From positions 23,156-87,155 of IMG/VR virus record IMGVR_UViG_2654587547_000001: DNA of 64,000 nucleotides. The stretch is one strand, 5' to 3'. The position numbers and the translations under genes were made by a program. This stretch comes from a virus (lineage: Duplodnaviria; Caudoviricetes). The notes beneath the pieces are model-generated. The model was given only the letters and a program-made list of their open reading frames with translations, searched no databases and was not told the DNA's origin. Numbering within the stretch: position 1 is the stretch's first letter; every line of letters begins with the position of its first letter. Shown here piece after piece: positions 4,084 through 61,614 of this stretch.

Positions 4084-4511
4084 GAATCGATATCGAAAAG
4101 CTTCGACCTGACCATATCCGGGATATTCAGTTGCAGGATCCGCAGTCGTTCCTGCAATCGGCGCTCACCCCTGAATATGCCGCAGAACTCTGCGCGCAGA
4201 CCGGTGTAGCGTGGGCGGCAGTGGCTGACGGGCGCACGATTGCGTGTGCTGGGCTGCTGGAAATGTGGCCTGGCCGCGCGCAGGGGTGGGCGCTTTTCTC
4301 GCCGGCAGCGTTGGGCAATTTCGTGGGCATTCACCGTATGGCCAAACGGGTGTTGTGTGATTGTGCTTGGCAGCGCGTCGAGGTGATGGTGGATGCTAAC
4401 CACGCGGCTGGTGTGCGCTGGGCCGAGCGTCTGGGTTTCACGCTTGAAGGGCGCATGCGCAAATACACCTCAGATGGCCGTGACTGCCTGATTTACGCGA
4501 GGGTCGAATAA
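4080..4511 (+). CDS. GNAT-fold virion assembly protein
   Basis: WAERLGFTLEGRMRKY GNAT-like C-terminus; position between nozzle and ejection genes; ATGA overlap. Confidence 0.7.
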   Translation: MRIDIEKLRPDHIRDIQLQDPQSFLQSALTPEYAAELCAQTGVAWAAVADGRTIACAGLLEMWPGRAQGWALFSPAALGNFVGIHRMAKRVLCDCAWQRVEVMVDANHAAGVRWAERLGFTLEGRMRKYTSDGRDCLIYARVE

Positions 4512-7637: not shown

Positions 7638-10126
7638 CGCAGATCGATGAGCGCCGGGTTGCGGCTCTGGCTGCCGCATCCAAGCCTGTCGGGCAGATCG
7701 TCGGGGAGGCCGAACCTAGCGCTTTTGCTGGTGTGGCGTCCGAGGTTCCTCGCGGGGTAGCTCTCGGCTCGTACCGTGCAATTGGCGCCGTGGCGGATCT
7801 GGCCGCGTCCGCCTATCAGCCGTTGCTGACCGGATTGGAGCGGGCGACTGGCGTCGAGGCGATGAACCCGTTTTCTGAGGTCGCGCGCTCGGCGGACCAG
7901 TTCGCCCGGGTGTACATGCCCGACCCGCTCACTACTGGCATGGCTGGGCAGCTGGTCAACGGCGTGGCGAGCGTCATTACCCAGGTGGGCTTGGGTGCGG
8001 GTGCGGCGCTGGCGTCCGGCGGCACAGGCATTGGTGCCATGTGGGCCGGGTCGGCTACCGCTGGTGGCGCGACGGGCCGCGGCACCTACCAGGAAATGAC
8101 CGAGCGAGGCGTTGATGCAAATACCGCACTGAATGCCGCATTCGTAGATGCGGTGGCCACAGGCGGCGGTGCGCTGCTACCTGGCGCCATTGGCTACGCC
8201 GGCGCGGCCGCACCTTTCGCCGCGGCGGGCGTCGGCGTCGGGCGTGCCGGATTCGTCGGCCTGAATGCGGCCTATGGCGCGGCCAGCAACATGGCGCTTG
8301 GGATTGCGCAGCGCGGGTCTATCCATAACCTCCTGAAGGCGGGCGGTTACGACACCATGGCAGAGCAGTACAAGCCCATGGACGCTGCAGCGTTGGCCGC
8401 CGAGGGCATTCTTGGTGGGGTGTTCGCAGCGGGCGGCGCGGCTGCCGGGCTGTCATGGCGCGCGCAAGGTACGGTCGACGCAGCGCTTGCGGCGCGCGAT
8501 TCGGCGCATGCCAACGTCGCCACGGCCCCAGGCATTCCCACGGAACCGGGCGATGCAACGGCGCACCGATCCGCTATGGATAGCGCGGTTACGGCGCTCG
8601 CCCAGGGGCGAGAAGTGGACATGCGCGGCACCGGGGTGGACGCCGCGGCTTTCCTCCCGCGCGCCAGTGACCCGACTCCAGCGCGCATGGCACTAGGCTA
8701 TTACGCCGACGAACTGCCCGCGTCACAGCGCTACTTCCCTTCCCGGCAGTTGACCGGCGTTGCCGTTGAGCAGCGTCGAACCTTGCGCTATGACGCCGCC
8801 GAACTCAATGAGTACGCGGCGCACATCGAACAAGAATACGAGCTGCCTGCGGGGCTGATCAACGCGCTCAAGAATGCCGGCGAGCGCAGCAACAGCAACC
8901 AGACAAGCCCGGCCGGCGCGCGCGGCGTAATGCAGTTCATGCCGGAGAACCTGCGCAAGTATGGGGTGACGGACGCCACGGACCCAGTGCAGATGATCGA
9001 CGCGGCGGGGCGCTATCTGCGCGACACCATGCGTCAGTACGGCGGGAACGTCGATGCCATGATTGCCGACTACAACGGCGGCCCGCGACAAGCGCGCGAG
9101 GTGCTTGCCGGGCGCCAGCCCAAGGCGAAGGAGACGCGGGATTATCTCGCGCGCGTGCGGGAATGGATGGGCCGCGATTCGTTCTCAGAACGGGGCCAGC
9201 CCACGGAAACGCTACCGCGCTTCCCGGCAGAGCAAGCGCGCGCCGCGGCGGCTATTGATCAGGAAGTGATCCGCCTGGAGGGAGCGCGCGCCGAGATGCT
9301 GGCGACTGGAGCCAACGAGGCTGAGCTAGGGCAAGTCGCGCGGATGCGGGATGAGCTGGCCGAGGTAACGCAGATGCGCCAGGGCATGGGCGAAGAACCC
9401 GCCATCCGGGCGCGCGCCAAGGAGATCCAGGGTTCAGAATCCCGGGTCAGTTACAAACAGGCCCTATCGCGCGCCCGCAAGCAGATCAGCCAGGAAGTTG
9501 GCGACGTTGATGCGCGCATCCAGCGGCTTGAGGCATCGCTTGAGCAGAACCGAGACGCGGCACAGGCGCTGCAACGGCTGGGCGAGATCGATGCGCGGCT
9601 TGCTGACCTGCGGGAAACCCGCGCGGCGATTGACGCGCCAGCAGCCGCACGCACGCCTATCTCGGCAGCGATCGAGGATGTTACGACGGCTCCAGCCCGT
9701 TCCGCCGAGGTGCAGCCCATAGTGACGGCTGGGGGTCAGGCCGAAAGCGCGCCTGTGCGCCTGCCGGGGGAGTCCGCGGACGTGCAACCGGCTGGGGTGC
9801 CGCGCGCGAATGCCGCAGCAGCTGGGGTCGCGCCAGTTCGCCAGGGACCAGCGGTAGAGCCTGCTCAGCCCAGCGCCATGCGTGCTGAACCGACCGCTCA
9901 AGATGGTGGTCGGGCTTCCGGCGGACAGACCGATATCGAAACCCAAGCGGGTTTGGCGCTGCTGGACGAGCAGGGTGATATCCGCGTGCTGGTCGAAGAT
10001 GAAAACGGCGGCACCCGAGAGGTGTCGTTGCGCGAGGAACTTCGGGCCGCCGAGGCTGAACTGGAATACGGCACGCCCGAGGCGTTGAATGCCGCGGTGA
10101 TGTGCGCACTGATGAGGGGGGGGTAA
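7634..10126 (+). CDS. Internal virion protein with lytic transglycosylase (SLT) domain
   Basis: GERS...SPAGARGVMQFMP...DAAGRYLR...IADYNGGP...ETRDYL SLT motifs plus coiled coil. Confidence 0.85.
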   Translation: MTQIDERRVAALAAASKPVGQIVGEAEPSAFAGVASEVPRGVALGSYRAIGAVADLAASAYQPLLTGLERATGVEAMNPFSEVARSADQFARVYMPDPLTTGMAGQLVNGVASVITQVGLGAGAALASGGTGIGAMWAGSATAGGATGRGTYQEMTERGVDANTALNAAFVDAVATGGGALLPGAIGYAGAAAPFAAAGVGVGRAGFVGLNAAYGAASNMALGIAQRGSIHNLLKAGGYDTMAEQYKPMDAAALAAEGILGGVFAAGGAAAGLSWRAQGTVDAALAARDSAHANVATAPGIPTEPGDATAHRSAMDSAVTALAQGREVDMRGTGVDAAAFLPRASDPTPARMALGYYADELPASQRYFPSRQLTGVAVEQRRTLRYDAAELNEYAAHIEQEYELPAGLINALKNAGERSNSNQTSPAGARGVMQFMPENLRKYGVTDATDPVQMIDAAGRYLRDTMRQYGGNVDAMIADYNGGPRQAREVLAGRQPKAKETRDYLARVREWMGRDSFSERGQPTETLPRFPAEQARAAAAIDQEVIRLEGARAEMLATGANEAELGQVARMRDELAEVTQMRQGMGEEPAIRARAKEIQGSESRVSYKQALSRARKQISQEVGDVDARIQRLEASLEQNRDAAQALQRLGEIDARLADLRETRAAIDAPAAARTPISAAIEDVTTAPARSAEVQPIVTAGGQAESAPVRLPGESADVQPAGVPRANAAAAGVAPVRQGPAVEPAQPSAMRAEPTAQDGGRASGGQTDIETQAGLALLDEQGDIRVLVEDENGGTREVSLREELRAAEAELEYGTPEALNAAVMCALMRGG

Positions 10127-12705
10127 TGCGCCAGGAATGTATTGAAGCGGTATCGCGTGCGCTTGGCGGACGGTCGCTTACTCAGGCGGAAGTCACTAAC
10201 ATTGAGAACCGCATTGCCATGGCCATGCGAAAGATGGCTGCAGAAGACATTACGGCCTGGCGCGGCATGAGCGAGGCTGATCGGATGGTGACCGCCGCAG
10301 ATCGCGCCGCCCGGGATATCGCAGCCGACGCCGCGCTTAAGCGACGGCGCGTGGCGCTCACTGCCCTACGCCATGACGCCATAAAGAATTACCTCGAGCG
10401 TCCTGGGCAAAAGGATCCGCTTGAGGCGCTTTCTCGCTCGCTCATGTTCTATTCGGACGGTAAGAGCGGCACGCTCTCAGTTGAGAGCATCGCGCAGGGC
10501 ATTCGCAATGAAGCCATGGGGCAGATGTTGGACGTGTTCGACAGTGTGAAGGGTGGAATGCTCGGCCTGATCACGGACGAGACGAAGGTGCTTAACATGG
10601 TGCGCGAGCTGCGCGGTCAGCAGACGGGCGACGCCGACGCGGCCAAGGCGGCGCGCGCGTATGGCGAGGTGTCGGAGCGGCTGCGAGACAGGTTCAACCG
10701 TGCCGGCGGCAACATCGGCCGGCTGGAAAATTGGGGTTTCCCCCAGGCGCACAGCCAGCGACTGGTTGCCACGGGCGGTGGCGACATGAAGGGCGCAGAG
10801 GCCCGGGCGGCGTGGGTTGAGGACGCCATGGGCGGCCTGGACCGTGGGCAGTATGTGAACGAGGACGGCTCGCTCATGAACGACACTCAGGTGCGCGAGT
10901 TGCTGGGTGCGGCCTGGGAGACGCTGGCTACGAACGGAGCCAACAAGATCGAGCCGGGGCGCGGCGGTCCTGCCAGCGGCATGGTGGCAAACCACGGCAG
11001 CGCCGAGCGGATCTTGCATTTCAAGGACGCCGAGAGCTGGATTGCCTACGCGCAAAAGTACAGTGATACGTCGATTCTGGAAACGATGCTGCGCCACGTC
11101 GACGGAATGGCACGGGATATCTCGTTGACGGAGACGTTCGGTCCGAACCCACACCTTCAGTTTCGTTTCTGGCGGGAGTGGGGCGTGAAGGAGATGAGCC
11201 TGCGCAACCCTGAGAACGCCGAGAAGATCACGGCACGCGCGCGATGGCTGGACACCGTGTACCAGAACACGGCCGGCACGAAGGAGCCGCCCGTGAATGC
11301 CGCGTTCGCTGAGGGTATGGACACGTACCGCGCGCTGAACACCGCCGCCCGCCTTGGGTCGGCTGCTCTGACTGCTGCGGTGACTGACCCTGCGACCAAC
11401 GCCATGACAGCCATCTATAACGGACTGCCGGTCATGCAGGTCATGACCAACGAACTGCGCGCACTGAACCCGGCCAATGTGGCTGACCGACGCGCGGCGC
11501 TGCGCGCTGGCCTTGGCATCAACCAGTACCTCGGCGCCATGAACCGCTGGGGCATAGATGGCATGGCTCGCGACTCCCAGGTGTCTGGGAGGATGGCACG
11601 CTATGCTACGGGTGCGGCGAGCGCGGTCATGAAGTTTTCCGGCATGAATGCGGTGACGCGTGCCGGCCAGCAGGCTTTTGGCTCCGTGCTGCTGGATACG
11701 CTGGGCGACATGACGCGCGCCGCCGGCGGTCTGGACGCAGCCCCGAACGCGCGCCTGGCGCAGCGGCTAAAACAGTCCGGGATCACCGATGATGTTTACG
11801 GCGTGTGGAAGTTGGCACAGCCCGAGGACTGGCGCGGCATGGGAGATACGGTACTCACGCCAGAGAGCATCTACCGGATCGCGGATGCCGATCTCGCTGG
11901 CGCGGCGGAGGCTGCGCAAACGACCCCGCAGCGTCTTCGCGAACAAGCGGCTACCCAGCTCGCCGCATTCCTGGACAGCGAAACCAACATGGCCATCATC
12001 GAGCCTGGCGTGCGCGAACGGTCGTTCATGTACCGGGGCACGCGCCGAGGCACGCTCGGCGGCGAGTTGCTGCGCGGCGCGCTGCAATTCAAGGCATTCC
12101 CGATTGCTATCCTCATGCGTCACGGTTATCGGGCTATGTCGACTCCCGGAGGGTGGGGCAAAGGCGCTTACATCGCAGGCTTGATGGGCCTAACAACGGT
12201 ATTGGGCGGCATTGCGTTGCAGCTTGGCGAGGTCGTATCAGGTCGGGATCCGCAAAACATGGAACCCTTCACCAACAATTTCTGGACGCGCAGCCTGTTG
12301 AAGGGCGGCGGTCTCGGCATCTTTGGTGATCTGATGTTCCAGGATTACACCCGCTACGGCACGTCGATAGGCGGCCTGATGGGCGGCCCGCTCGGCGGCG
12401 ATGTGGAAGACATGGCAAAGCTTGTCCTTGGCAACGTCCAACGTGGCGCCGAGGGTAAGGAGACGGATGTGGGCGCTCGCGCCGTGCGCATGCTGAAAGG
12501 CAAGATCCCGTTCGCCAACCTCTGGTACACAAAAGCGGCGACGGATCGCATGATCTTCAACCAGTTGCAGGAGTTGGTATCGCCAGGCTACCTGCGCCGG
12601 ATGGAGGATCGCGCGCGCAAGGAATTTGGGCAGCAGTATTACTGGCGCCCGGGTGAGGCCACGCCACGGCGCGGCCCCGACCTGGAGCGTGCGCTGCCTC
12701 AGTAG
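10126..12705 (+). CDS. Large internal virion protein (Bbp7-like)
   Basis: TAATG coupling; MRQECIEAV start; LQFKAFPI, GGGLGIFGD, PFANLWYTKAATDR motifs. Confidence 0.8.
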   Translation: MRQECIEAVSRALGGRSLTQAEVTNIENRIAMAMRKMAAEDITAWRGMSEADRMVTAADRAARDIAADAALKRRRVALTALRHDAIKNYLERPGQKDPLEALSRSLMFYSDGKSGTLSVESIAQGIRNEAMGQMLDVFDSVKGGMLGLITDETKVLNMVRELRGQQTGDADAAKAARAYGEVSERLRDRFNRAGGNIGRLENWGFPQAHSQRLVATGGGDMKGAEARAAWVEDAMGGLDRGQYVNEDGSLMNDTQVRELLGAAWETLATNGANKIEPGRGGPASGMVANHGSAERILHFKDAESWIAYAQKYSDTSILETMLRHVDGMARDISLTETFGPNPHLQFRFWREWGVKEMSLRNPENAEKITARARWLDTVYQNTAGTKEPPVNAAFAEGMDTYRALNTAARLGSAALTAAVTDPATNAMTAIYNGLPVMQVMTNELRALNPANVADRRAALRAGLGINQYLGAMNRWGIDGMARDSQVSGRMARYATGAASAVMKFSGMNAVTRAGQQAFGSVLLDTLGDMTRAAGGLDAAPNARLAQRLKQSGITDDVYGVWKLAQPEDWRGMGDTVLTPESIYRIADADLAGAAEAAQTTPQRLREQAATQLAAFLDSETNMAIIEPGVRERSFMYRGTRRGTLGGELLRGALQFKAFPIAILMRHGYRAMSTPGGWGKGAYIAGLMGLTTVLGGIALQLGEVVSGRDPQNMEPFTNNFWTRSLLKGGGLGIFGDLMFQDYTRYGTSIGGLMGGPLGGDVEDMAKLVLGNVQRGAEGKETDVGARAVRMLKGKIPFANLWYTKAATDRMIFNQLQELVSPGYLRRMEDRARKEFGQQYYWRPGEATPRRGPDLERALPQ

Positions 12706-12727
12706 GGCGCCGGGCAGCGCGGGAAGG

Positions 12728-14377
12728 TCACCGATGCGCGGTCTGGACCGTGGGGTTGCCGAGCCAGATTTTGCTGGTGGCCCCCACCGTCGTCTTGAAG
12801 TCGAGGCGCACGAACTTACCCGCATTCAAGTCGAGATCCCCGCCATGGGCCGGGATTGTGCCGGCTGGGGTCCAAGTCAGGAGGTCATCGCTGTAGGAAG
12901 CCTTGAAGTCGCCTTTGCCGTCTTGGGCAGCATCGATGTACAGCTTTGCCTCGGCAAACTCGCGGGGGAGAATGATCCAACCGTCGCACCGAGGCGCCAC
13001 CGGGGAGCCGCCCGCGAAGCCGAGGACGGGGTGCGGAATGATACGGCGGAAGGTGGCGTTGCATTCGTTCATGACCGCGCCGTAATGCGGCACATCGCGC
13101 AGGATCATCATCATCTTGATCGCCAATACATCCTTTCCGCTCGTGTCCTCGAACGTGGCAATCACCTTGTCCGCTTCAATCGGTTGCGGGAACATGATGT
13201 CGAGGTGGCGCAATTGGTTGTTCGTGATGATCTTTTCAGCCACCTTTGTGCCGTTTTTCCAGGCCGTCACGCTGAAATTGACCGGACGTTCGATCATTAG
13301 ATTGGCATCGATAGCCACGCCCTTCACGCGGTCGGCCGCTGGCATGTTAATGATTAAGTCGGCGGGGAAGGTGCCGGTGGACCAATAGTGATCACCGTAG
13401 AGCGCTTTCACACCTTCCGGACCATGCGCAACGGGGTCAATTGAGTTGCTGGCTGAGTACTTGTCTTGGTTCGCATCGTAGGCGTGGAACCGCATAGCCC
13501 ATTCCAAGAACGTCGGATCCTTGAACTCCTCGTACATCCAGATCAACTGACCGACGTGGTGCGCGTTGTACTCCAGTCGGGGCGCGATTGGGCGCTCGGT
13601 GCTGGGCATCTTCAGCGAGTAGTAGGATGAAAATCCAGCGTCGAAGAGGTGTACGTCGCGCTTCACTGCGGCCACCGTTTTGGCGATCAGGGCCTTCCAT
13701 TTCTGCTCACGTGTGACCGCGTAGTAATCCATGATGCCGGCCAGGCCCGTCACATGGCCGTTCAGCACCTTGAAGCTGTTGCCCTTGGGATCGGCCATTT
13801 CTTCTATCCAGGCCACATCACCATCGAAGGTCATGACGCCGCCCTCAGAAATAGGGTGTTCATAGGCTGCCATGGCCTTCTTGGCGGCATCCTGGTACTT
13901 CTGCTCGCCCGTCATTGCGTGCGCGCGAACCAGGACGCCGGCCATGCGAGACTGGCCAATGCCGGACACCCAACCCGGATCCAGTTGGAAATTCGGATCG
14001 GAAAAGGGGTATTCCCAAACCAGCATTTCACCGCGCGCCTTGCCTTCCTGGATCATCCAGTCAGCGACGCGGAGAAATTTCTTGCGCAGTTTCTCGTCCT
14101 TGCACTGCGTATCCAGATAGTCGCGGTAGAGCGCTAGAGCATAGTTGGTGTTGAAGTACGGATCAGCCCACTTGCCAAGATTGTTAAAGGCCTTGCCGTA
14201 ATCGAAAAGCACAATCCCATCTTCGCGCAGGCTGAAGCCGTTGGTGGTCGCGTAAGTTTCACCGCTGATGAACAGCGTGCGTTGAGCAGGCGGGATAGCC
14301 GGGCACTCGGCCGAGACGGCTGCTGCGCAGGCAGAACCAAGCGCGAGCGCGAAAATGTACTTGCCAATGAAACGCAC
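12728..14377 (-). CDS. Secreted D-glucuronyl C5-epimerase-family protein with C-terminal discoidin/CBM-like region (moron)
   Basis: WVSGIGQ...LVRAH..TG...Y, WIEE, VLNGH, FDAG.SSYYSL, EYNAHHV.QL motifs match the C5-epimerase C-terminal domain. N-terminal signal peptide. GTG at 14377 follows GGAG (alternative TTG 14389). Confidence 0.8.
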   Translation of the reverse strand: MRFIGKYIFALALGSACAAAVSAECPAIPPAQRTLFISGETYATTNGFSLREDGIVLFDYGKAFNNLGKWADPYFNTNYALALYRDYLDTQCKDEKLRKKFLRVADWMIQEGKARGEMLVWEYPFSDPNFQLDPGWVSGIGQSRMAGVLVRAHAMTGEQKYQDAAKKAMAAYEHPISEGGVMTFDGDVAWIEEMADPKGNSFKVLNGHVTGLAGIMDYYAVTREQKWKALIAKTVAAVKRDVHLFDAGFSSYYSLKMPSTERPIAPRLEYNAHHVGQLIWMYEEFKDPTFLEWAMRFHAYDANQDKYSASNSIDPVAHGPEGVKALYGDHYWSTGTFPADLIINMPAADRVKGVAIDANLMIERPVNFSVTAWKNGTKVAEKIITNNQLRHLDIMFPQPIEADKVIATFEDTSGKDVLAIKMMMILRDVPHYGAVMNECNATFRRIIPHPVLGFAGGSPVAPRCDGWIILPREFAEAKLYIDAAQDGKGDFKASYSDDLLTWTPAGTIPAHGGDLDLNAGKFVRLDFKTTVGATSKIWLGNPTVQTAHR

Positions 14378-14508
14378 GATTGTCTCCAATTATTACTATG
14401 TACGGGCGCGAGTTTATCACCCTGACCTCTTGCTGAATGCTAGGAAACGCAGAACTCTACAGGCAGGTCGCAACATCCTGTAGCGCAGTTCCTCAAAGGC
14501 CCTGCGCT

Positions 14509-16950
14509 ATGACCGTTCAAACCGAGATCTCCACCGTCACGCACGATTGTGATGGCGTCACCATCGCGTTCCCCGTCCCGTATCGCTTTCTGACGAATAC
14601 CGATCTGGTAGTAACTCGGATAGAACCGGGGGGCGACGAAGACGTCCGCACTGTCCTGACGCTTGGTACTGATTACATGGTGACCGGCGCGGGTGCTGAT
14701 GCTGGTGGAACCATCACTACAGCGGTCGACTACCCGGTCGGTGACAAGCTGGAAGTTGAGCGCGACGTGCCGATGACGCAGCTCACTGAATACCAGCCCA
14801 GCGGGCCGTTCCCAGCGAAGTCGCACGAGCGTGCGCTGGACAAGCTGACGATGGTGGACCAGCAACTTGAACGCCGCATCTTGCAAAACGAGAGCAATAT
14901 CCAGGATCTTGAAGAGTTCGACGCCAGCATCGGCGGTCTAGTCGAACAAGCCGCGAGTAGCGCTGCTGCTGCTCAAGCTGCAGCGCAGGCCTCTCAAGAG
15001 GCGCTATACGAGTTCCGAGGCGTGTACCTCGGTGCTCAGTCTTCAGACCCCACGCTTGACTTGAACGGGAACCCTGTCACCGAGGGGGACTTCTATTTCA
15101 ATATCGTCAGCAAGCGTATTCGAATTTACGACGGTAGCGCGTGGTCGGATGGCGTTGACGGCGTGACGGAGGCGCAACTGGCAGCAGCCGGAGGCGCCGA
15201 ACTGATCGGATATCAGAATCCTGCGGCGGGTTCGGTTGTAGAAACCCTCGCCAGTGTGGCCGACCGCCAGCTTACGGCCTTCACGTTTGGCGCGGTGGGC
15301 GACGGCGTAGCGGATGACACTGAGGCGCTGCAAGCCCTGGCGGATGCCCCTATCGGATTCAAGCGTATCCCGGCGGGCACCTACCGGGTAACGAACACGA
15401 TTCAATTTCAGCCGGGCGATACGGTTGTTGGCGACGGCCGTAACACCGTGATCGCGCCGGACCCGACGGGGTGGGGCACCAAATCTGTCATGGCCGTATC
15501 CGGCGAATTGGTCGCGATGCCCAACTTGGCGGCCAACGTAGCGCAAGGTTCTGCCAATCTCACGGCAGCAAGTGCGCCTAATTTTGCGTCCGGTGACGTG
15601 GGCCTGATTTTCCACCCCAGCGATTCATCATTTTCGACGTGGCGCACTTACTACAAGGCGGGCGAATTTTTCCGCGTGAGCAGCGTTACCGGCACCGCTA
15701 TCAGCACGATGGGGGTTACCTATGCTCCGTATGCGTTCGCCAATGTTGTGGTGTACAAGCTGGTCGGCAAGTCTACGGTTTTCCGCGACTTTCACATCCA
15801 GCAGCCGTCCACACAAAACGTCGGTCTTCGCGTTTCGCTGATCGATGGCCCCATTATTTCCAACGTCACCACGGGCGGAAGCACGTACTGCGGCATCGAG
15901 ATTGACCGCTGCTATGACATTCGAGTGGAATCCACTGTGTTCCAGGCGTCCCCCGCCGTGGACGATGAGTACGGTTTGTTGATCTCCAACAGCCAGGGCG
16001 GCGTCATCAACGGGTCTTTTTACGGCGGGCGGCATGCGGTCGCTTTCGGAGGTGGCTCAGGCGTCGGGTGCGTGTCGTGCCGAGGCATTACGGTTACGGC
16101 TGCGAACATGGGCGGCAGCGGCAATATCGGATCGCACGACCTGCACGGCAACACCGAAGACATCCGATTTTTCGGCGGCACGTTCGCCAACGGCGGCACG
16201 CTGGCCGGCAAGAATCACACGTTCAACGGTTGCAGGTTCATGGGGAACCGCAATAGCGGCATAGCCCTGTACGGCGGCGAGATCGTGGGCGGTACGCACC
16301 ATTTCGTGGATTGCCATTTTGAATCGACCATCATTAACCCGAACGCGGCTGGCTTCGGTTTGCTGGACTTCACTCAGCTGAGCGCCAACGTAACCCAGCT
16401 TACCTACATCAAGTTCAACAATTGCACGTTCTACGCGCCGTCCGGTTGCACGTATGTCGTAGCGGCGGCCCTCACCGGCACGCCCAATGACATCAGCCTG
16501 ATGTTCGATTCTCCCTCGGTTGTCTTTGCCCCAAGCGTTACGCAATTCTTGCGCATAAGCAAATCGAGCGGCGCGGGGCGTTTCGATACGCTCCAAATTA
16601 AAGACATTACCGGAATGCCTGGGACGGGGGCCTCTTACGTGGTATCGGCCAGCGGTTCCCCGGCGGTGTTGCACTATCGCATGCCTACTCAAACCGGCTC
16701 AGCTCCGGTGACGATATCGACCGGTGCGTCTGCGGCATCCACCACGGTAACTTTTCCTGTCGCGTACCCGAAAACCCCTGCCATCGTGTCATCGTTGACG
16801 CTCAACACGGTTGGGGGGGATCGCAGCATTTGTGCGCCTGTCTCCCCAAGCGCGACCGGCTTTTCGGCAACCGTCGCAACTGCTGACGGCGGTAACTTCG
16901 CTGCGGCTGATACGGCCACGGTCATGTGGCACGCGGGTCTTGATGAGTAG
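14509..16950 (+). CDS. Tailspike / receptor-binding protein, probable polysaccharide depolymerase
   Basis: T7-tail-fibre-type N-terminus (DGVTIAFPVPYRFL..TDLVV); FGAVGDGVADDTEALQA pectate-lyase-3 entry motif followed by beta-helix-like sequence. Confidence 0.85.
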   Translation: MTVQTEISTVTHDCDGVTIAFPVPYRFLTNTDLVVTRIEPGGDEDVRTVLTLGTDYMVTGAGADAGGTITTAVDYPVGDKLEVERDVPMTQLTEYQPSGPFPAKSHERALDKLTMVDQQLERRILQNESNIQDLEEFDASIGGLVEQAASSAAAAQAAAQASQEALYEFRGVYLGAQSSDPTLDLNGNPVTEGDFYFNIVSKRIRIYDGSAWSDGVDGVTEAQLAAAGGAELIGYQNPAAGSVVETLASVADRQLTAFTFGAVGDGVADDTEALQALADAPIGFKRIPAGTYRVTNTIQFQPGDTVVGDGRNTVIAPDPTGWGTKSVMAVSGELVAMPNLAANVAQGSANLTAASAPNFASGDVGLIFHPSDSSFSTWRTYYKAGEFFRVSSVTGTAISTMGVTYAPYAFANVVVYKLVGKSTVFRDFHIQQPSTQNVGLRVSLIDGPIISNVTTGGSTYCGIEIDRCYDIRVESTVFQASPAVDDEYGLLISNSQGGVINGSFYGGRHAVAFGGGSGVGCVSCRGITVTAANMGGSGNIGSHDLHGNTEDIRFFGGTFANGGTLAGKNHTFNGCRFMGNRNSGIALYGGEIVGGTHHFVDCHFESTIINPNAAGFGLLDFTQLSANVTQLTYIKFNNCTFYAPSGCTYVVAAALTGTPNDISLMFDSPSVVFAPSVTQFLRISKSSGAGRFDTLQIKDITGMPGTGASYVVSASGSPAVLHYRMPTQTGSAPVTISTGASAASTTVTFPVAYPKTPAIVSSLTLNTVGGDRSICAPVSPSATGFSATVATADGGNFAAADTATVMWHAGLDE

Positions 16951-17073
16951 CACCAGGCCCGGGGTTTCGATCCAGGCCTGGCCTTGAACTTTAGGCCTTA
17001 TGCAAATGGCGGATCCCCACATCACCGACGCAGCAATTAAATCCAGCGACGCACGCATCACTGGGGCCTGCTC

Positions 17074-17414
17074 GGCGGCTTTTTTTACGTCTATATGGGA
17101 CGCGATGTTGTCGCTTCAAAGGAAAGGCCATGGCTGACGAACATCTGTCCGATGCGTTCATCAAGTCACTGCACGCGCGCGTCGTGCAAATGGAGCAAGA
17201 CATGGCACACAATGCGGAAGCCACCGCGCGGAATACCGATTCAATCGAGACAATCCGCCGGAACACGCAGGACATCGTTGACACGTTCCAAGCGCTGGCG
17301 GGCGGGTTCAAGGTACTGCAAGGGCTGGGCCGGCTGGCAAAGCCGCTTGCGTATATCGTTGGCTTCGTCACTGCTGTTATCACTGCCTACTCGGCGTGGC
17401 GGGGTATCAAATGA
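17074..17414 (+). repeat. Direct repeat copy 1 (holin gene plus leader), paired with 61680-62020
   Basis: Leaders nearly identical (TTTTTTACGTCTATA.GGGACGCGATGTTGTCGCTTCAAAGGAAAGGCCATG); proteins differ at 6 of 94 aa. Confidence 0.95.
17130..17414 (+). CDS. Putative holin
   Basis: 94 aa, C-terminal hydrophobic segment, ATGA overlap with endolysin. Confidence 0.7.
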   Translation: MADEHLSDAFIKSLHARVVQMEQDMAHNAEATARNTDSIETIRRNTQDIVDTFQALAGGFKVLQGLGRLAKPLAYIVGFVTAVITAYSAWRGIK

Positions 17415-17965
17415 AGCTTGGAACCAAGATCGCGGGAGGTGCCGCTGCCCTCGTTGCTTCTGGCGCTTTGACGCTGTTCTCGCCAACGCTGCAATCCTTC
17501 CTTGGCAAGTGGGAGGGCGACGGGCAAAACGTTGTCTACGCCGACAAGCTGGCCCGCGGCCTGCCTACGGTATGCAAGGGCATCACCAAGCACACCAGCC
17601 CTGAGCCATTGGTGGTGGGCGACTACTGGTCGCCGGAGCGCTGCGAGCAGATTGAGCGCCTGGTGGTGAGCAAGGGTCAATTGAAGCTGGCGGACTGCAT
17701 CGACGTGGTGATCAGTCAGCCGATCTTTGACGCCCTGAGCAGCCATGGCCACAACTTCGGCACGCCCAGCACCTGCGCGAGCCGCGCGGTGGGCCTTATC
17801 AATGCCGGCCGGCTGCGAGAAGGTTGCAATGCCCTGGCTCATGCGCCGAACGGGTCTCCAGTCTGGTCCTACGTCACTGATGCCAAGGGCGCTAAGGTCT
17901 TTGTGCAGGGCCTGTACAACCGGCGTCTGGATGAGGAGCGGCTATGTCTCTCGGGGCTGGGCTGA
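17411..17965 (+). CDS. SAR-type endolysin (GH24 lysozyme)
   Basis: Ala/Gly-rich N-terminal anchor; WEG...YADKLA.GLPTVC.G catalytic region; GLYNRR..E. Confidence 0.85.
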   Translation: MKLGTKIAGGAAALVASGALTLFSPTLQSFLGKWEGDGQNVVYADKLARGLPTVCKGITKHTSPEPLVVGDYWSPERCEQIERLVVSKGQLKLADCIDVVISQPIFDALSSHGHNFGTPSTCASRAVGLINAGRLREGCNALAHAPNGSPVWSYVTDAKGAKVFVQGLYNRRLDEERLCLSGLG

Positions 17966-18495
17966 TCGGCTGGAAAGGATACGCGGTGGCCAGCATCGTA
18001 GGCGCGGCACTGTTGGGCGGCGCGATACTTGAGCGCCACTGGTACGGCGCCAGTCAATACCGGGCCGGAGCCGACGCCAAGCAAGCCGAAATCGAGAAAC
18101 GCCAAGCGGCCATCGAGCACGCATGGCAGGAGGAAAGGGATCGTGCTGATGCCAAACACCGCGGCGCCGTCTTGGCGCGCGAACAAATCGAATCGAAGCT
18201 GGCGCAGGCTGAGCGCGATCGTGATGCCGCTTTTGCTCGCATTGCCGGGCTGCGCAAGCAGCTTGCCAGCCGGGGCGCCGCGGCTACCGACGCCGGCGGC
18301 GGATCTGATAGCCCCGGCCCCGACTGGATCGGCCTATTTGGAGAGTGTCTCGGTCGAGCTCAAAGCCTTGGACGACGACTTGGCGAGGTGGGAAAGGATG
18401 CTGCAGGATGGGCTGACCAAGTGAATGGGTTACAGGGTTATATTCAAGGCCTGCGCGGCGCACAGAGGATAAAGGCGCCGGAGCAGATACCCTAA
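17944..18495 (+). CDS. Rz: Inner-membrane spanin
   Basis: N-terminal TM segment plus coiled coil after endolysin; contains embedded lipoprotein ORF. Confidence 0.75.
   Translation: MSLGAGLIGWKGYAVASIVGAALLGGAILERHWYGASQYRAGADAKQAEIEKRQAAIEHAWQEERDRADAKHRGAVLAREQIESKLAQAERDRDAAFARIAGLRKQLASRGAAATDAGGGSDSPGPDWIGLFGECLGRAQSLGRRLGEVGKDAAGWADQVNGLQGYIQGLRGAQRIKAPEQIP
18149..18424 (+). CDS. Rz1: Outer-membrane spanin lipoprotein, embedded in Rz (+1 frame)
   Basis: RBS AGGAAAGG, lipobox LLALPG-C, Pro-rich mature part. Confidence 0.7.
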   Translation: MPNTAAPSWRANKSNRSWRRLSAIVMPLLLALPGCASSLPAGAPRLPTPAADLIAPAPTGSAYLESVSVELKALDDDLARWERMLQDGLTK

Positions 18496-19060: not shown

Positions 19061-19180
19061 CAAGGTATGTGGGGGATTTATTGGCAAAGTAGGCGCAATC
19101 CGGCGTAATCGTCGCGGTGGGCGCGAAGCCAAAGCCCAGCAAAATCAACGCCCTAGGGCTATGCGCCTATCGCGTCCGTT

Positions 19181-19227
19181 GACTCATAATCCGTTGGTGC
19201 CGAGTTCGACTCTCGGGGGGCCTACCA
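19181..19227 (+). other. att core: 3' fragment of a tRNA(CAT) (Ile2/Met) at the prophage junction
   Basis: GACTCATAATCCGTTGGTGCCGAGTTCGACTCTCGGGGGGCCTACCA has anticodon loop, T arm and CCA; upstream sequence cannot form the acceptor, D or full anticodon stem. Confidence 0.9.
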
Positions 19228-19235
19228 ATAGATAT

Positions 19236-19270
19236 GCGGGTCTTGGAGCAATCCAAGGCCCGCTTTCTTT
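19236..19270 (+). terminator. Rho-independent terminator after the tRNA fragment
   Basis: GCGGGTCTTGGA-GCAA-TCCAAGGCCCGC then TTTCTTT. Confidence 0.85.
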
Positions 19271-19326
19271 TCCGCAATCGGGTTAAATTTCCGCAAATCC
19301 ATTTTTTGATTTTGGGGGCATCCAGA

Positions 19327-20076
19327 GTGAATCGTGAGTATTTCAGACGAGATATTTTTGATCGAAGCTTCCCCAAGTGGCCATGTCCACACTGTCGCAG
19401 GGGTGAATTGCACCCGATTGCCGAACCGGGCTACGACAGGCCTACTGCTGAGACATTGCGATATGTGCACGATCCAGATCGTGAAGCGGGATGGGTGAGG
19501 CGGCGCTTTTTTCTCCAGTTCAGTTGCCCCTCATGTCCAGAAGGAATGCTTCTGGTTGGTGAGGCGACGGATGATGCTTATCACTATTTTGATGAGAACA
19601 CAGGCGAGGAGGAGCACGGACACTTTGAGGTGGTCTACCCCAAGTACCTTTACCCGGCAGTGAGCTTAATAAACGTACCTGATGCTGCGCCGGCGACGAT
19701 CCGGCAAGCACTTGATGAGGCGGCCGAATTGTTTTGGGTGTCTGGCCAGGCAACGGTGAATGCACTTCGCAAGGCCGTCGAGTGCCTAATGACGGACCAA
19801 GGAATTCCTGGTTTTGGCGCCGACAAAAAATTTGTGCCTCTGCACGATCGAATTGTTGAGTTTTCGAAAGCTCACCCGGACTTCAAGAACTTGCTAACGG
19901 CGGTAAAACTGCTTGGGAATGCAGGAAGTCACGAGGACGTTCCGGATGATCTCGACGGTATGTTGTTCGACGCGCTCGAAATCGTTGAGTTTGTGTTGGT
20001 GAATCTTTATGACAAGCCCATTCTAAAAATGGATGCACTCGCGCAGCGTATCGAGGCACGCTTGAAGCCTCATTGA
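19327..20076 (+). CDS. DUF4145 (HEPN-like) protein with N-terminal Zn ribbon
   Basis: CPHC and CPSC pairs; LRKAVE...L.DRI...KLLGNAGSH; lower GC. GTG 19327 preferred because the 19234 start runs through the terminator. Confidence 0.75.
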   Translation: MNREYFRRDIFDRSFPKWPCPHCRRGELHPIAEPGYDRPTAETLRYVHDPDREAGWVRRRFFLQFSCPSCPEGMLLVGEATDDAYHYFDENTGEEEHGHFEVVYPKYLYPAVSLINVPDAAPATIRQALDEAAELFWVSGQATVNALRKAVECLMTDQGIPGFGADKKFVPLHDRIVEFSKAHPDFKNLLTAVKLLGNAGSHEDVPDDLDGMLFDALEIVEFVLVNLYDKPILKMDALAQRIEARLKPH

Positions 20077-20084
20077 ACATGAGG

Positions 20085-21173
20085 TCATCGTGTGGGTCCC
20101 GCCTTGTCGCCTTTGCGGTGCCGTACATATCGCTCGGTGGTTGATACCGAGCCGTGGCCGAGCTGTTTTTGGGCCTGGCGAATGTCGCCGGCCGATTCGG
20201 TTTTGTCTGTGCCGGCCTTGGCGCGCAGGTCGCGGAACTGGAATTCGGCCTTGGGGACGCCGGCTATTTCCCTGGCCTTGTCGAACCGGTCGCGCAGCGC
20301 ACCTGCGGTCAGCGGCAAGCCGGATTCGTTCATCACCAGGTACAGGCTGACCACCTTGTTCTCAGCGCGGTAGAGCGTCTTTCTTGCCTTGATCCGGTCG
20401 ATCACCTGGGCGAGCTCTCCCGTAATCTCGATCCGTAGTTTCTGGTCTGTCTTGCCCTGGCGCACGTGCAAGAAGCCGTCGCGCATGTCGGTCTCCAGAA
20501 AGCGCAGGGTGTCAGCCGGCCGCTGGCCCGCCAGATAGGCAAGGTCCATGGCGTCCCGTAGCGGCTCGTCAGCGGCCTTCCAGACCTGAGCATAGGTGTT
20601 GTCCTCGACGTAGGTGTCGCGCCCGCGCTCCTTGTTCTTTCGCACGCCTTGAGCCGGGTTTGGTGCGTCGGTCAGACCGATCTCGCGGGCATAGTTGAAA
20701 ATGGCGCTGAACAGCGCGATTTCACGGTTGGCGCGCACGTGGCCGGCATCCGGCGGCACAGGCCGGCCCTTCTCGCGGAACCAGTCCGCCGCTTTCCCCA
20801 TGCGCCAGCGGATGTATCGGGTGACGTGGACAGGCTTGATCAACTCCAGCACCACCGGCGGCTTGTCGAAGATCTCGCACAGGAATTCGAGTTCGATCTG
20901 GTTCCCGTCCTGCGTGCGCGGAGCCTTCGTCGGCACAATGTCGGCGAAGTACCGGTTGGCCGCCTGCCGGAAGGTGACTTGACTGGCGGCGCCCACCGAC
21001 TGCTGCGTCAGTTGCCCCCAGCGGCGCATGGCCTCGACGAAGTCAGACCCCAACGGCTCTTCCTTGCGGGGCTTCCCGCCCAGATCAAAGTAGTAGTAGG
21101 TCTTGGCGCCGCGGTGGCGCGCGCGCATGCCTGGCGGCAGGCGATTGCGGGTAGGCTTGCGCCCCATGCTCAT
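20085..21173 (-). CDS. int: Tyrosine integrase
   Basis: GQRPAD (R), QGKT (K), FRDLRAK, LGH and TERY motifs; near att core. Confidence 0.95.
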   Translation of the reverse strand: MSMGRKPTRNRLPPGMRARHRGAKTYYYFDLGGKPRKEEPLGSDFVEAMRRWGQLTQQSVGAASQVTFRQAANRYFADIVPTKAPRTQDGNQIELEFLCEIFDKPPVVLELIKPVHVTRYIRWRMGKAADWFREKGRPVPPDAGHVRANREIALFSAIFNYAREIGLTDAPNPAQGVRKNKERGRDTYVEDNTYAQVWKAADEPLRDAMDLAYLAGQRPADTLRFLETDMRDGFLHVRQGKTDQKLRIEITGELAQVIDRIKARKTLYRAENKVVSLYLVMNESGLPLTAGALRDRFDKAREIAGVPKAEFQFRDLRAKAGTDKTESAGDIRQAQKQLGHGSVSTTERYVRHRKGDKAGPTR

Positions 21174-59700: not shown

Positions 59701-61614
59701 CTAGTCAAGCGGTATCGACTTCGCCACCACCTTCGCCCCGTCGGTGGTTAGGTGCCCGTCATCCCAAGTGGTAAAGCTCGTCGGGCTATCGTTCGTCCTA
59801 ACAAGGCAGCCGTCGTTGTTGCATAAGCTGTCGAAGGCAGAAACATAGGTGATTCTTTCGGCTTTCGCGATTTTGCGAAAGGTCGAATCAATACTCCGGA
59901 TCATCGGGCTTAGGGGTGTTTGGAGGCGGGTCGGAGCTTCTTGCGAAATGGCCCCACTTTTCCAGGTCTTCAGTACCAGGCTGGGCAAATTCTCGGGCCA
60001 ACGTGGCGCGGGGCCAACAAGTATCACGTTTTTCACACCCGCAGCTTTGACTGAGCGAATTGTCAGAATCAAGGCATCTCGTTCGTCTGACTGCTTTTCC
60101 CAGTCTTTGGTGTATTGATCCCAGACAGCGAACATCAAGACCGTGGCGTTCGGATGTTGTTTGATCAATGACAGGGTGAATGCGTTACCGGCCTTGCAGG
60201 TGTCGTATTGGCTATCCAGCATGGGAGGACAACTATTGCGGGTCGTCTGGGCGATTGAATATCGGTCGCCCAAGGTTGCCAATACCCCGGGGTAGAGCCG
60301 GGCAGCAAACGAATCACCCCAAACAATCAGCGATTTCCCGCCTGATCGATCCAGGTTCTCGAAGCACTCTGGAGCAAATGCGGAGCCGGATGCCTTGGCA
60401 TTCAGCCAGCATATGGATCCTCTTGCATCGCCTTTGAATTGGTAGTTATAGGTGGCTACCGCCTGCATCGCTTCGGGCAGACGCGAAGGGACCCCCTGAC
60501 TGGCGACGGCCTGAGCGCCCAGCGCGCCTGCAATAACGAGCGTGCCCCCCAGCGCTGGTATGGCGATCCGCGGCCGCATGGACATACGCAAGGGTTTTTC
60601 AATGAAATGGTAGGTGAGAGCAGCAAGAGGGACGCTCGCCAATGCCAGTGCGATCCTTGTCCCCTGTTGTAGGTCTGGATCCAGTAGCTTCCCGAACGAA
60701 ATAAGCGGCCAGTGCCAGAGGTAGAGCGGGTAGCTGATCAGACCGATGTAGACGAGAACACGGTTGCCGAGAATGCTCCGTCCCAGCGTAGATCGATTGG
60801 CGGTAGCCAGAAGAAGCACCGCTCCGGAAACGGGGATTAGCGCCCACCATCCCGGGAATGCGCGATGGCTATCGAGAAGCACTGCGGCGCCCACGATAAG
60901 GACCAGGCCGAGCGCCGTTGCCAAATTGCTGATGGCGCCAGACATGCGATGCAGGATTGTGTCGGGACGCAGCATCAGGTAGGCAATGGCTGCGCCAGAG
61001 AGAAGTTCCCAGAATCGAGTGTGTGGCAAGAAGAAAACCTCAACCGGGTGCCCTTGAATGCGCCCGACGTTGAGCAGAAACGAAATTATCGCGATGGCCG
61101 CTATCGTCGGGAGACATTTGTTCTTTCTGAAAGCGAACAACAAGATAGCCGGATAGATCAGGTAGAACTGCTCTTCGATTCCCAACGACCATAGGTGCAT
61201 CAGCGGCTTCAGTTCCGAGGCCGTATTGAAGTAGCCGTCCTGCTGCCACAGTACGAAGTTCTGAAGGAAAGTTGCTCCTCCGATTATCTGAATGCCAAGC
61301 TGACTAAATTCCTGTGGCATCAGAAGTATCCAGCCAGCAGCATATGTCGCAACCAGCACTGTCACCAGCGCGGGTAGCAGTCTCCGGGTCCGGGATAAGT
61401 AAAACCCCGCAAAGCTGAACGTGCCTTGATGAAGCTTCCGGAAGATTATGGAAGAAATCAAGAAGCCGGATATGACGAAGAAAACGTCCACGCCAACGAA
61501 GCCGCCGGTAAATAGGTCGGGTAGCGCGTGGTAAATGACGACGGAAATTATCGCGACAGCTCTAAGGCCATCTATGTCTGGTCGATAAGAAATCCCGTGG
61601 CTGGCGTTTTTCAT
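59701..61614 (-). CDS. Acyltransferase_3 plus SGNH O-acyltransferase (OafA-like moron)
   Basis: YRPDIDGLRAVA, GVDVFFVISGFLI, HLWSLGIEEQFY, ISYPLYLWHWP, then GDS and DDGH SGNH motifs; lower GC. Confidence 0.93.
   Translation of the reverse strand: MKNASHGISYRPDIDGLRAVAIISVVIYHALPDLFTGGFVGVDVFFVISGFLISSIIFRKLHQGTFSFAGFYLSRTRRLLPALVTVLVATYAAGWILLMPQEFSQLGIQIIGGATFLQNFVLWQQDGYFNTASELKPLMHLWSLGIEEQFYLIYPAILLFAFRKNKCLPTIAAIAIISFLLNVGRIQGHPVEVFFLPHTRFWELLSGAAIAYLMLRPDTILHRMSGAISNLATALGLVLIVGAAVLLDSHRAFPGWWALIPVSGAVLLLATANRSTLGRSILGNRVLVYIGLISYPLYLWHWPLISFGKLLDPDLQQGTRIALALASVPLAALTYHFIEKPLRMSMRPRIAIPALGGTLVIAGALGAQAVASQGVPSRLPEAMQAVATYNYQFKGDARGSICWLNAKASGSAFAPECFENLDRSGGKSLIVWGDSFAARLYPGVLATLGDRYSIAQTTRNSCPPMLDSQYDTCKAGNAFTLSLIKQHPNATVLMFAVWDQYTKDWEKQSDERDALILTIRSVKAAGVKNVILVGPAPRWPENLPSLVLKTWKSGAISQEAPTRLQTPLSPMIRSIDSTFRKIAKAERITYVSAFDSLCNNDGCLVRTNDSPTSFTTWDDGHLTTDGAKVVAKSIPLD

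Follow-up and report, generated by a model that had tools for sequence, protein, structure and literature searches.

Genes at the locus

The DNA analysed here, referred to as the window, is a stretch of 64,000 nucleotides (positions 23,156 to 87,155 of IMG/VR record IMGVR_UViG_2654587547_000001) that forms the right-hand 64 kb of an 87-kb, metagenome-derived provirus record and contains two tandem prophages. We focus on a single gene of the first prophage, which runs antisense to the late operon, is flanked by the tailspike gene and the final internal virion gene, which stops at 12705, and encodes a protein related to the D-glucuronyl C5-epimerases (GLCE). The provirus record carries integrase, repressor and virion genes, indicating a temperate phage context. 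Its first prophage is a T7-type podovirus with a tail tubular protein (phrog_376), internal virion proteins that include an SLT-domain protein and phrog_684, a tailspike, an endolysin and a spanin. As placed by the first-pass annotation of this DNA, the open reading frames (ORFs) at 12728-14389 (minus strand) and 14437-16950 (plus strand) are divergent and head-to-head. The features relevant to the epimerase-like gene are as follows (aa, amino acids; nt, nucleotides; CBM, carbohydrate-binding module):

10102..12705, plus strand: internal virion protein phrog_684, with its stop at the edge of the cassette
12699..14444, no strand: cargo cassette of 1,746 nt, comprising the epimerase gene, 29 nt downstream and 67 nt upstream, delimited by contigs without it
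12728..14377, minus strand: GLCE-family C5-epimerase-like protein of 549 aa, predicted to be exported; start GTG 14377, open frame reaching TTG 14389
14309..14377, minus strand: predicted signal peptide (by eye), residues 1-23, predicted cleavage after V-S-A
13463..14308, minus strand: catalytic (alpha/alpha)4-type barrel, residues 24-305, holding E193, N206, H208, Y253, Y270, H274 and Q277 (domain model, column conservation)
12731..13462, minus strand: two C-terminal beta-sandwich domains of CBM32/discoidin type, residues 306-549 (PDB profile and Foldseek)
14383-14387, minus strand: Shine-Dalgarno sequence GGAGA, read by eye
14411..14419, minus strand: candidate extended -10 element TGATAAACT, by eye, inside the cassette
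14509..16950, plus strand: tailspike; ORF open from ATG 14437, real start probably ATG 14509
~14509-14868, plus strand: T7-type N-terminal adaptor of the tailspike (PHROG/Pfam)
~15232-16944, plus strand: LKA1 gp49-type beta-helix lyase module of the tailspike with Ig-like insertion and C-terminal domain (Pfam, 4RU4)

The likely start of the epimerase-like gene is GTG 14377, five bases after the GGAGA (by eye), and the 549-aa product read from it is entry P0003 of the protein collection. A basic n-region and a hydrophobic core precede V-S-A and then Glu-Cys-Pro, which by eye gives the N-terminus a Sec-like appearance. A similar Sec-type N-terminus was counted by eye in 34 of 40 family members, consistent with the signal peptide claimed in the first-pass annotation. 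Just after the signal peptide lies a family-conserved motif, Cys-Pro-x-Ile...Ala-Pro-Arg-Thr.

The antisense gene encodes a protein with the GLCE fold

The Pfam model C5-epim_C (PF06662) matched residues 122-301 with E 1.6e-33 over profile positions 4-186 of 188, its 116.3 bits lying far over the cut-off of 23.3, and the same family scored 119.5 bits in a separate profile search of the genome record. A family profile matched GLCE structures at E 1.7e-26, and sequence identity to GLCE was 22-26%. The full-length AlphaFold model, computed from a family alignment (A1) of 40 sequences reaching down to 28% identity, had a mean predicted local distance difference test score (pLDDT) of 89.9, and its best Foldseek matches were zebrafish and human GLCE (E 4e-9, 218 columns). 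Modelled alone, the catalytic domain reached a pLDDT of 93.8 and superposed on zebrafish GLCE (4pw2_A) with Z 28.6 and a root-mean-square deviation of 3.5 A over 264 of 281 residues, compared with Z 15.1 for the next-best chain after GLCE among 48,161 chains. The C5-epimerase assignment, for which the first-pass annotation had proposed a profile search and a structure superposition as checks, is thus upheld by both. The catalytic domain contains eight long helices (DSSP) and its best structural matches are alpha/alpha barrels. The mature protein would start ~30 residues ahead of the barrel and runs on into two CBM32-like domains.

The carbohydrate-binding-like C-terminal region noticed earlier resolves into these two beta-sandwiches. 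Profile matches to the CBM32 entries 2jd9, 5zu6 and 2v72 in the PDB ranged from E 6e-4 to 5e-3, with YeCBM32 the best CBM profile match (E 6e-4). Foldseek matched the C-terminal ~240 residues to tandem discoidin domains and to CBM32 2v72, and homologs carry the Pfam domain F5_F8_type_C. A glycan-binding module common to the epimerase and the tailspike was considered and ruled out, the C-terminal region showing no similarity to the tailspike (E 3.8). Searches for the epimerase found no lyase family in Pfam at E 0.01 or better and no matching family in PHROGs. NCBI already names the family 'D-glucuronyl C5-epimerase family protein', and the family itself is not new.

Most active-site residues are conserved across the family

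[quoted passage not shown] The equivalents in the window protein, with their occurrence in the 40 aligned sequences, are:

GLCE E499: E193 here, 40/40 sequences
GLCE Y500: M194 here; M 18, A 14, V 7 and Y 1 of 40
GLCE N510: N206 here, 40/40
GLCE Y560: Y253 here, 39/40
GLCE Y578: Y270 here, 40/40

WIEEM of the window protein aligns to WYEEY of zebrafish and human GLCE, and the Glu and the two Tyr are kept, so that the motif comparison in the first-pass annotation proved accurate. Twenty columns are invariant over the 40 sequences and are concentrated in the GLCE active-site motifs. The family has in addition an invariant His208 after the Asn (LNGH) where GLCE has Phe (LNGF). Since the equivalents of E499 and Y578 are both invariant, the proposed two-base epimerase machinery appears intact, with family-specific variation around it. 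The invariance of this pair likewise makes cleavage of the glycan, which had been offered as an alternative to epimerization, the less likely activity.

The gene is carried on a dispensable cassette

Contigs of a related phage (sequencing runs X5 and X7, one study; 90-95% alike) join position 12698 to 14445, skip the intervening 1,746 nt with six other letters in their place, and pass from the internal virion gene straight to the tailspike. The phrog_684 virion protein of this cassette-less relative ends three residues past the joint. Runs X2 and X3 hold the epimerase gene at 95-99% likeness. Because the X5/X7 contigs skip exactly 12699-14444, a close relative makes the same virion without the epimerase gene, as expected of cargo. 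The cassette has a GC (guanine plus cytosine) fraction of 0.578, compared with 0.656 for the upstream virion genes, and includes the ribosome-binding site and the -10 candidate. That candidate, TAAACT on the minus strand from 14416 to 14411, is preceded by TGA and reads as an extended -10. The first-pass claim that the gene has a -10 element of its own therefore holds insofar as the element is present, in extended form and within the cassette; a sigma-70 consensus scan did not support it, and we retain it as a candidate only. A potential terminator hairpin at 12691-12721 was rejected, as it lacks a T-run and folds no better than shuffled sequences (z -0.28). A look-up of RNA runs listed none, and X5 and X7, which are RNA runs by guess at most, carry the cassette-less form and are therefore silent on expression.

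The adjacent tailspike resembles an O-antigen lyase

Matches of the tailspike in PHROG and PDB begin at residue 25, and its real start is for this reason probably ATG 14509, which leaves a divergent intergenic region of 131 nt. The protein matched Gp49_Pectate_lyase_like (PF22442, E 2e-32) and TSP_Ig-like (PF20745, E 7e-13) in Pfam, and phrog_13768 (E 1.8e-93) and phrog_1640 (E 7.9e-38) in PHROG. Residues 266-836 of the tailspike (entry P0002) matched the catalytic fragment of LKA1 gp49, 4RU4, at E 1.8e-67, and 4RU5 was matched at E 2.8e-56. LKA1 gp49 is described as an O-specific polysaccharide lyase that cuts the P. aeruginosa O5 antigen by beta-elimination, turning a 2,3-diacetamido-mannuronic acid residue into a 4,5-unsaturated acid, with a putative active site in which Asp497 is critical and His499, Arg329 and Arg459 lie close by (Olszak et al. 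2017, PMC5701251). Tailspike residues D568, H570, R403 and R532 align to gp49 D497, H499, R329 and R459, respectively; the offset between chain index and residue number in the 4RU4 alignment was checked on five residue types. Based on the homology to 4RU4 and the retention of the active-site residues, the tailspike is very probably an active lyase for a uronic-acid glycan.

Chromosomal relatives reside in polysaccharide biosynthesis clusters

A word-indexed search returned 40 relatives, designated, where named, 'D-glucuronyl C5-epimerase family protein', with identities of 56-62% for Achromobacter and 42-45% for Pseudomonas (P. aeruginosa included); other taxa were represented too. A profile search returned 5,138 representative clusters at E 0.001 or better, 644 of them at E 1e-30 or better. 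From these searches 14 genomic and 16 viral loci were sampled.

The chromosomal relatives are located in Wzx/Wzy polysaccharide clusters. At the 11 chromosomal loci examined, where not every ORF was scanned in both libraries, a WecB/WbpI-type 2-epimerase was found in 8, a WbuX-type amidotransferase in 6 and HisH/HisF-like partners in 4. Further neighbours include Wzx, Wzz, initiating transferases, GT4 glycosyltransferases and heptosyltransferase I, and locus L012 adds a nucleoside-diphosphate-sugar 6-dehydrogenase, a 3-dehydrogenase/oxidase, an aminotransferase and an acetyltransferase. We take this gene set, by analogy with the wbp cluster of P. aeruginosa O5, to be the pathway to 2,3-diacetamido-mannuronic acid and its acetamidino form. 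Loci L008, L009 and L014 are not of this wbp-like type. At L005 the gene next to the epimerase is Wzy-like.

Two loci link the epimerase physically to the polymerase. L011 (5142-9611) and L012 (5094-9602), from metagenome-assembled genomes (MAGs) of two phyla (Planctomycetota and Bacillota), each encode a single Wzy_C::C5-epim_C::F5_F8_type_C protein, of 1489 and 1502 aa, respectively. By hydropathy the N-terminal part is a polytopic Wzy_C polymerase, with the epimerase and CBM at the C-terminal end and ~500 residues without assignment between the membrane part and the epimerase. The hydropathy scan was crude; it gave 8-9 segments and could not place the side of the C-terminus.

Two other arrangements were observed among the chromosomal loci. 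At L013 (4272-9476, a Thermoanaerobaculia MAG) a protein of 1734 aa, in which three C5-epim_C stretches are combined with two discoidin domains, adjoins a WecB-type 2-epimerase. In an Allopusillimonas O-antigen cluster (L006) the epimerase is present as tandem paralogs at 7950-9617 and 9713-11377, and two residues of one repeat unit might be epimerized there.

Phage relatives and the D3 serotype-conversion module

The phage collection contained 16 matching records, all of them temperate: 15 near-identical P. aeruginosa phages from one study and one Bradyrhizobium phage. In 14 non-redundant phage contexts (L022-L026 being judged the same as L021, and L030 the same as L029, from ORF maps only), the epimerase gene was always at the tail-fibre or lysis end of the prophage. 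A tailspike of gp49 type at the Pfam level lies adjacent or one gene off in 5 contexts (the window, L001, L020, L029 and L032), and a spike matched by phrog_13768 only is adjacent in 2 more (L027 and L031). L004 and L028 have T7-type fibres without the gp49-type module. Other fibres are found at L002, in the L021 group and in three Achromobacter myovirus-type prophages, the last of which hold the epimerase gene after the lysis genes, between the spanin and a phrog_1599 gene. The epimerase homolog of L032 (7929-9633) is spread over two overlapping ORFs of 189 and 401 aa and may be frameshifted or mis-assembled. L020 encodes, at 9614-10576 on the minus strand, a 320-aa protein with weak Kelch-repeat matches between its gp49-type tailspike and its epimerase homolog.

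In the D3-like P. aeruginosa prophages L029 and L030 the gene order is endolysin, epimerase, a 31-aa ORF, a 384-aa membrane protein and a convergent gp49-type tailspike. The epimerase has 98.5% identity to P0029, a 169-member cluster named for P. aeruginosa, and the 384-aa protein has 90% identity to wzy-beta of phage D3 and 96% to its phi297 counterpart. L029 matches phi297 at 95.9% identity from 8805 onward, the 31-aa ORF included. This conserved ORF lies just upstream of wzy-beta (~8800-8905 in L029, ~4020-4120 in phi297, locus L034), and by size and position we take it as iap. The D3 unit is reported as an experimentally proven module for O5-to-O16 conversion (PMC4815439). Past the epimerase stop in L029 there is a GC-rich hairpin with a T-rich tail.

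We next considered all 27 phage-collection records with a D3-type tailspike, defined as at least 80% identity over at least 84% of the length. Twelve carry wzy-beta (D3, phi_D3, PMG1, phi297, Marin, PP9W, Fyn8, FBPa19, FBPa42 and duplicates), 15 carry the epimerase without wzy-beta, and none carries neither. As the 15 epimerase records represent one lineage, this either-or pattern is suggestive rather than statistical.

The first-pass annotation had proposed to check whether alleles of the epimerase and the tailspike co-vary across prophages. No coupling was seen across 10 loci. In a tree of 23 catalytic domains (leaving out L015, the duplicates L017, L019, L022-26, L028 and L030, the truncated L032 and second high-scoring segment pairs), the window epimerase groups with the copies from Achromobacter myovirus prophages (support 100/99, 74% identity), and phage and chromosomal copies are mixed in one 99/99 clade. 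The epimerase gene tracks host lineage and moves between phage types. Taken together, the lack of allele co-variation and the placement in the tree identify the epimerase as a mobile conversion cassette rather than as the co-evolving partner of one spike.

A model for O-antigen conversion, and its alternatives

We propose that the gene encodes a periplasmic uronic-acid C5-epimerase of the O-antigen that serves lysogenic conversion by inverting the carbon attacked by the lyase tailspike, and assign this reading a probability of roughly 0.55. Its components are not equally firm: that the product is an exported GLCE-type enzyme acting on a uronic-acid glycan is very likely, and that the target is a Wzy-dependent surface polysaccharide is quite likely. 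The antisense gene would be a self-contained cargo cassette (a 'moron') of a temperate T7-type podovirus whose product would be exported to the periplasm. There the enzyme would encounter the O-unit or growing chain at the periplasmic side, the site of Wzy action, a location suggested by the Wzy_C fusions. A Tyr/Glu two-base site in the GLCE-type barrel would take the C5 proton off a hexuronic-acid residue and return it on the other face, while the two CBM32-like domains would hold the glycan. The substrate would most likely be an O-antigen with 2,3-diacetamido-mannuronic-type sugars, in which a D-manno residue would become L-gulo at the O-unit or polymer level, and the lysogen would display the converted O-antigen. 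Beta-elimination by a gp49-type tailspike would start at the same C5 proton, and since this lyase first removes that proton, cleavage should be blocked: with a gulo residue at the cleavage subsite, the tailspike would no longer bind or cut the converted glycan. M- and G-specific alginate lyases discriminate manno from gulo in a similar manner. The outcome would be seroconversion and superinfection exclusion of the same and related phages. The model builds on homology, fold, the conserved acid/base pair, the cassette nature of the gene and the genomic company of its relatives; beyond a homologous fold with an intact acid/base pair we infer every step of the mechanism, including export, substrate, reaction direction, expression of the gene in the lysogen and the consequence for the tailspike.

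Several observations weigh against this proposal. The tailspikes of L001 and L029 are 87% identical while their epimerases share 45%, and conversely the epimerases of L029 and L028 are identical while their tail proteins are unrelated. The nearest relatives of the window gene, those of the Achromobacter myovirus-type prophages, lie beside ordinary tail-fibre genes and not gp49-type spikes. The 15 epimerase-bearing records with D3-type tailspikes are near-identical and come from one study and one lineage, so that the 27/27 pattern rests on few lineages. No WecB-type gene was found among the ORFs scanned in 3 of the 11 chromosomal loci. The residue equivalent to Tyr500 is non-Tyr in 39 of the 40 sequences, and because this tyrosine is absent the chemistry may differ from that of GLCE. 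Finally, a consensus sigma-70 scan of 12400-14700 found 0 promoters where 0.7 were expected, and no significant terminator was found after the epimerase gene. The earlier suggestion of lysogenic conversion thus gains comparative support from the absence of the cassette in a close relative, from the O-antigen clusters and Wzy fusions, and from the adjacency to iap and wzy-beta; a tight allele pairing with the tailspike does not stand.

We questioned whether the same data fit a different substrate, namely a capsule, an exopolysaccharide or an alginate-like matrix, the modification of which would benefit the host (for instance in biofilms or upon desiccation) in ways unrelated to the phage receptor, with the tailspike adjacent merely because the site is a common insertion hot spot for cargo. 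The absence of co-variation between epimerase and tailspike alleles fits this alternative, as do the Achromobacter prophage copies, which are placed behind lysis genes and not near spikes of gp49 type. Capsules and exopolysaccharides are likewise products of Wzx/Wzy clusters, and the clusters at L008, L009 and L014 are not wbp-like. YeCBM32, the top CBM match, belongs to CBM32 and presumably binds polygalacturonate. Against such a substrate stand the adjacency to iap and wzy-beta, which act on O-antigen, the Wzy_C fusion, neighbours that include Wzz and heptosyltransferase I, and the alternation of epimerase and wzy-beta in the phage records with a D3-type tailspike, and we regard it as unlikely.

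Two further alternatives concern the activity itself. The protein could be a polysaccharide lyase or depolymerase derived from an epimerase scaffold, in which abstraction of the C5 proton is followed by beta-elimination, so that the receptor glycan is trimmed or destroyed or, as with AlgL, periplasmic polymer is cleared. It is established chemistry that uronic-acid epimerases and lyases have their first step in common, and the two departures from GLCE, at the Tyr500 position and at His208, are compatible with altered chemistry. Yet both members of the proposed acid/base pair are invariant, and among solved folds GLCE stands clearly closest, with the top lyase structures, PL10 1gxm (Z 13.2) and the pectate lyase 1r76 (Z 11.9), falling into a generic toroid background far under it. 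Furthermore, a lyase fused to a Wzy polymerase would undo the product of the polymerase, whereas pairs of gulo/manno epimers made by identical clusters represent known chemistry that lacks an enzyme in the accounts available (PMC4815439, PMC12004945). A lyase activity consequently appears improbable. The notion that the protein is a catalytically dead, lectin-like decoy or shield, which would coat the surface glycan and block adsorption while leaving the glycan unchanged, draws on the two CBM32-like domains and the one missing canonical catalytic Tyr. It accords poorly with 20 invariant columns centred on the GLCE active-site motifs and with chromosomal copies inside biosynthetic clusters, and is very improbable. 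Epimerization of the O-antigen is thus the explanation we favour.

Second prophage and other features of the record

Outside the epimerase-tailspike region the following features were identified:

17396..18495, plus strand: endolysin and Rz-like spanin, forming the lysis module that closes the podovirus-type prophage on the right (Pfam/PHROG matches)
19179..19227, plus strand: partial tRNA 3' end of 49 nt (CAT anticodon loop, T-arm, CCA), between the two prophages
59701-61614, minus strand: O-antigen acetylase of 637 aa in the second prophage (phrog_6705, E 2.8e-159)

The second prophage is of myovirus type, with an integrase (20085-21173), repressor, terminase, sheath and baseplate. Its acetylase gene is antisense, directly follows the tail-fibre and assembly genes, and sits at a cargo position equivalent to that of the epimerase; the slot between spanin and phrog_1599 gene is otherwise empty in this prophage. 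Because the second prophage has an O-antigen acetylase at the equivalent position, we conclude that the epimerase occupies the kind of slot used by known serotype-converting cargo. This one record accordingly contains two different predicted O-antigen-modifying cargo genes, the epimerase and the acetylase. PADLOC gave no match for the epimerase, the acetylase or three neighbour genes.

The first prophage ends near the 49-nt tRNA 3' fragment, which is probably an attachment (att) site, that is, a shared att core between the tandem prophages. ARAGORN did not find a whole tRNA, and a second copy of the fragment (an att repeat) was not found across the 87-kb record. Bordetella phage vB_BaM-IFTN8 contains a stretch that matches the fragment at 100% identity. 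Alone between the fragment and the integrase of the second prophage, at 19234-20076 on the plus strand, lies a gene for a DUF4145 protein (phrog_1305, 'DNA binding protein') without PADLOC match. An ORF at 16991-17383 on the minus strand was discounted, as its composition looks spurious and it has no family match. In runs X3 and X5, ~150 nt at 12125-12280, inside the phrog_684 gene, are swapped for ~146-148 other letters, a small mosaic patch between related phages.

Implications for P. aeruginosa serotypes

The serotypes of the O2 serogroup have identical biosynthesis clusters, so that the genes for their differences must lie elsewhere (Taylor et al. 2016, PMC4815439), and a figure legend of the same paper lists both guluronic and mannuronic residues. 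According to a 2025 review, O5 versus O18/O20 and O16 versus O2 have identical Wzy and epimeric D-manno/L-gulo residues, by a mechanism that needs further study (PMC12004945). Two prophage-borne clades of the epimerase are common in P. aeruginosa assemblies, one near P0014 (258 member sequences) and one near P0029 (169). Only the P0029 type was found beside wzy-beta, and the P0014 type occurs without iap and wzy-beta. Considered without serotype labels, the clades fit a scheme in which O2 combines beta-linkage with gulo and O18/O20 combine alpha-linkage with gulo.

We therefore raise, as a tentative proposal to which we give somewhat less than even odds, that the secreted GLCE-like family is the missing O-antigen uronic-acid C5-epimerase of Wzy-dependent pathways and that its phage-borne members convert serotypes by a fourth enzymatic route, the others being glucosylation, acetylation and replacement of the polymerase. 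The P. aeruginosa clades would make the L-gulo residues that distinguish O18/O20 from O5 and O2 from O16, and the window gene would do the same job in an unrelated, probably Alcaligenaceae-like host, disarming lyase tailspikes. In a full-text search, outside of which most subscription journals lie, no paper came up that reports a GLCE-type epimerase carried by a phage or belonging to an O-antigen pathway, and none that links the GLCE-type family to the manno/gulo serotypes of P. aeruginosa. Several independent comparative lines of sequence evidence thus point to a known enzyme family in a role that we did not find described.

O-antigen conversion by lysogeny is a classic subject, and to our knowledge the tools by which phages achieve it add groups or swap the polymerase. 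An epimerase would instead alter the configuration of a sugar that the chain already contains and would need no donor substrate. If true, no other tool would counter lyase-type tailspikes as directly, because the C5 proton is the target of both enzymes. For many bacterial GLCE homologs a natural role is suggested by the comparative data, which also make testable why P. aeruginosa serotypes with identical O-antigen clusters differ by manno/gulo uronic acids, pairs that the family may explain. This question matters for serotyping in silico, for the host range of phages and depolymerases used in therapy, and for the design of O-antigen vaccines.

Comparison with known systems

The window enzyme shares with animal GLCE (zebrafish 4PW2/4PXQ, human 6HZZ) a homologous alpha-helical barrel with the equivalents of E499, N510, Y560 and Y578 kept. 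GLCE acts on a uronic acid already within a glycan, and the same is proposed here. Animal GLCE is built of an N-terminal beta-hairpin for dimerization, a beta-sandwich and the barrel (PMC13308652). In contrast, the window protein lacks this three-domain architecture and has a predicted signal peptide and two C-terminal CBM32-like domains; it further differs in the replaced Tyr500, the invariant His after the Asn and a predicted substrate that is bacterial O-antigen and not heparosan. A bacterial member of the GLCE family, the GlcA C5-epimerase of Bermanella marisrubri RED65 (Raedts 2013), was assayed on desulfated heparin, and its available description, on which and not on sequence our comparison is based, reports no phage or O-antigen context. 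The alginate epimerases AlgG/AlgE catalyse the same net reaction as proposed here, D-manno to L-gulo at the polymer level and outside the cytoplasm, with the same interplay with M- or G-specific lyases. Their right-handed beta-helix nevertheless differs from the alpha/alpha barrel of the window enzyme, and they belong to the synthase-dependent alginate pathway rather than a Wzy-dependent O-antigen pathway and are not phage-borne.

With respect to the phage context, LKA1 gp49 is homologous to the window tailspike throughout the catalytic and C-terminal part, although the latter is only ~30% identical and belongs to a temperate phage of another host. The D3/phi297 unit (iap, wzy-beta and O-acetylase) is likewise temperate-phage cargo between lysis genes and a gp49-type tailspike, and is reported to change the O5-type O-antigen that is the phage receptor (PMC4815439). 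The epimerase homolog of L029/L030 sits inside this module, whereas D3, phi297 and PMG1 are without an epimerase. D3 alters the linkage of O-units from alpha to beta and adds acetyl, while the window gene would invert C5 of a uronic acid. The phage O-antigen acetylases and Gtr glucosylation clusters (P22, Sf6, SfV and others) are cargo next to the tail-fibre or tailspike gene and att. They follow the same logic and genomic position as the window gene, and the second prophage of the window has such an acetylase. In contrast to these systems, which add a substituent via a membrane-bound transferase, the window enzyme would be a soluble periplasmic isomerase that works without a donor.

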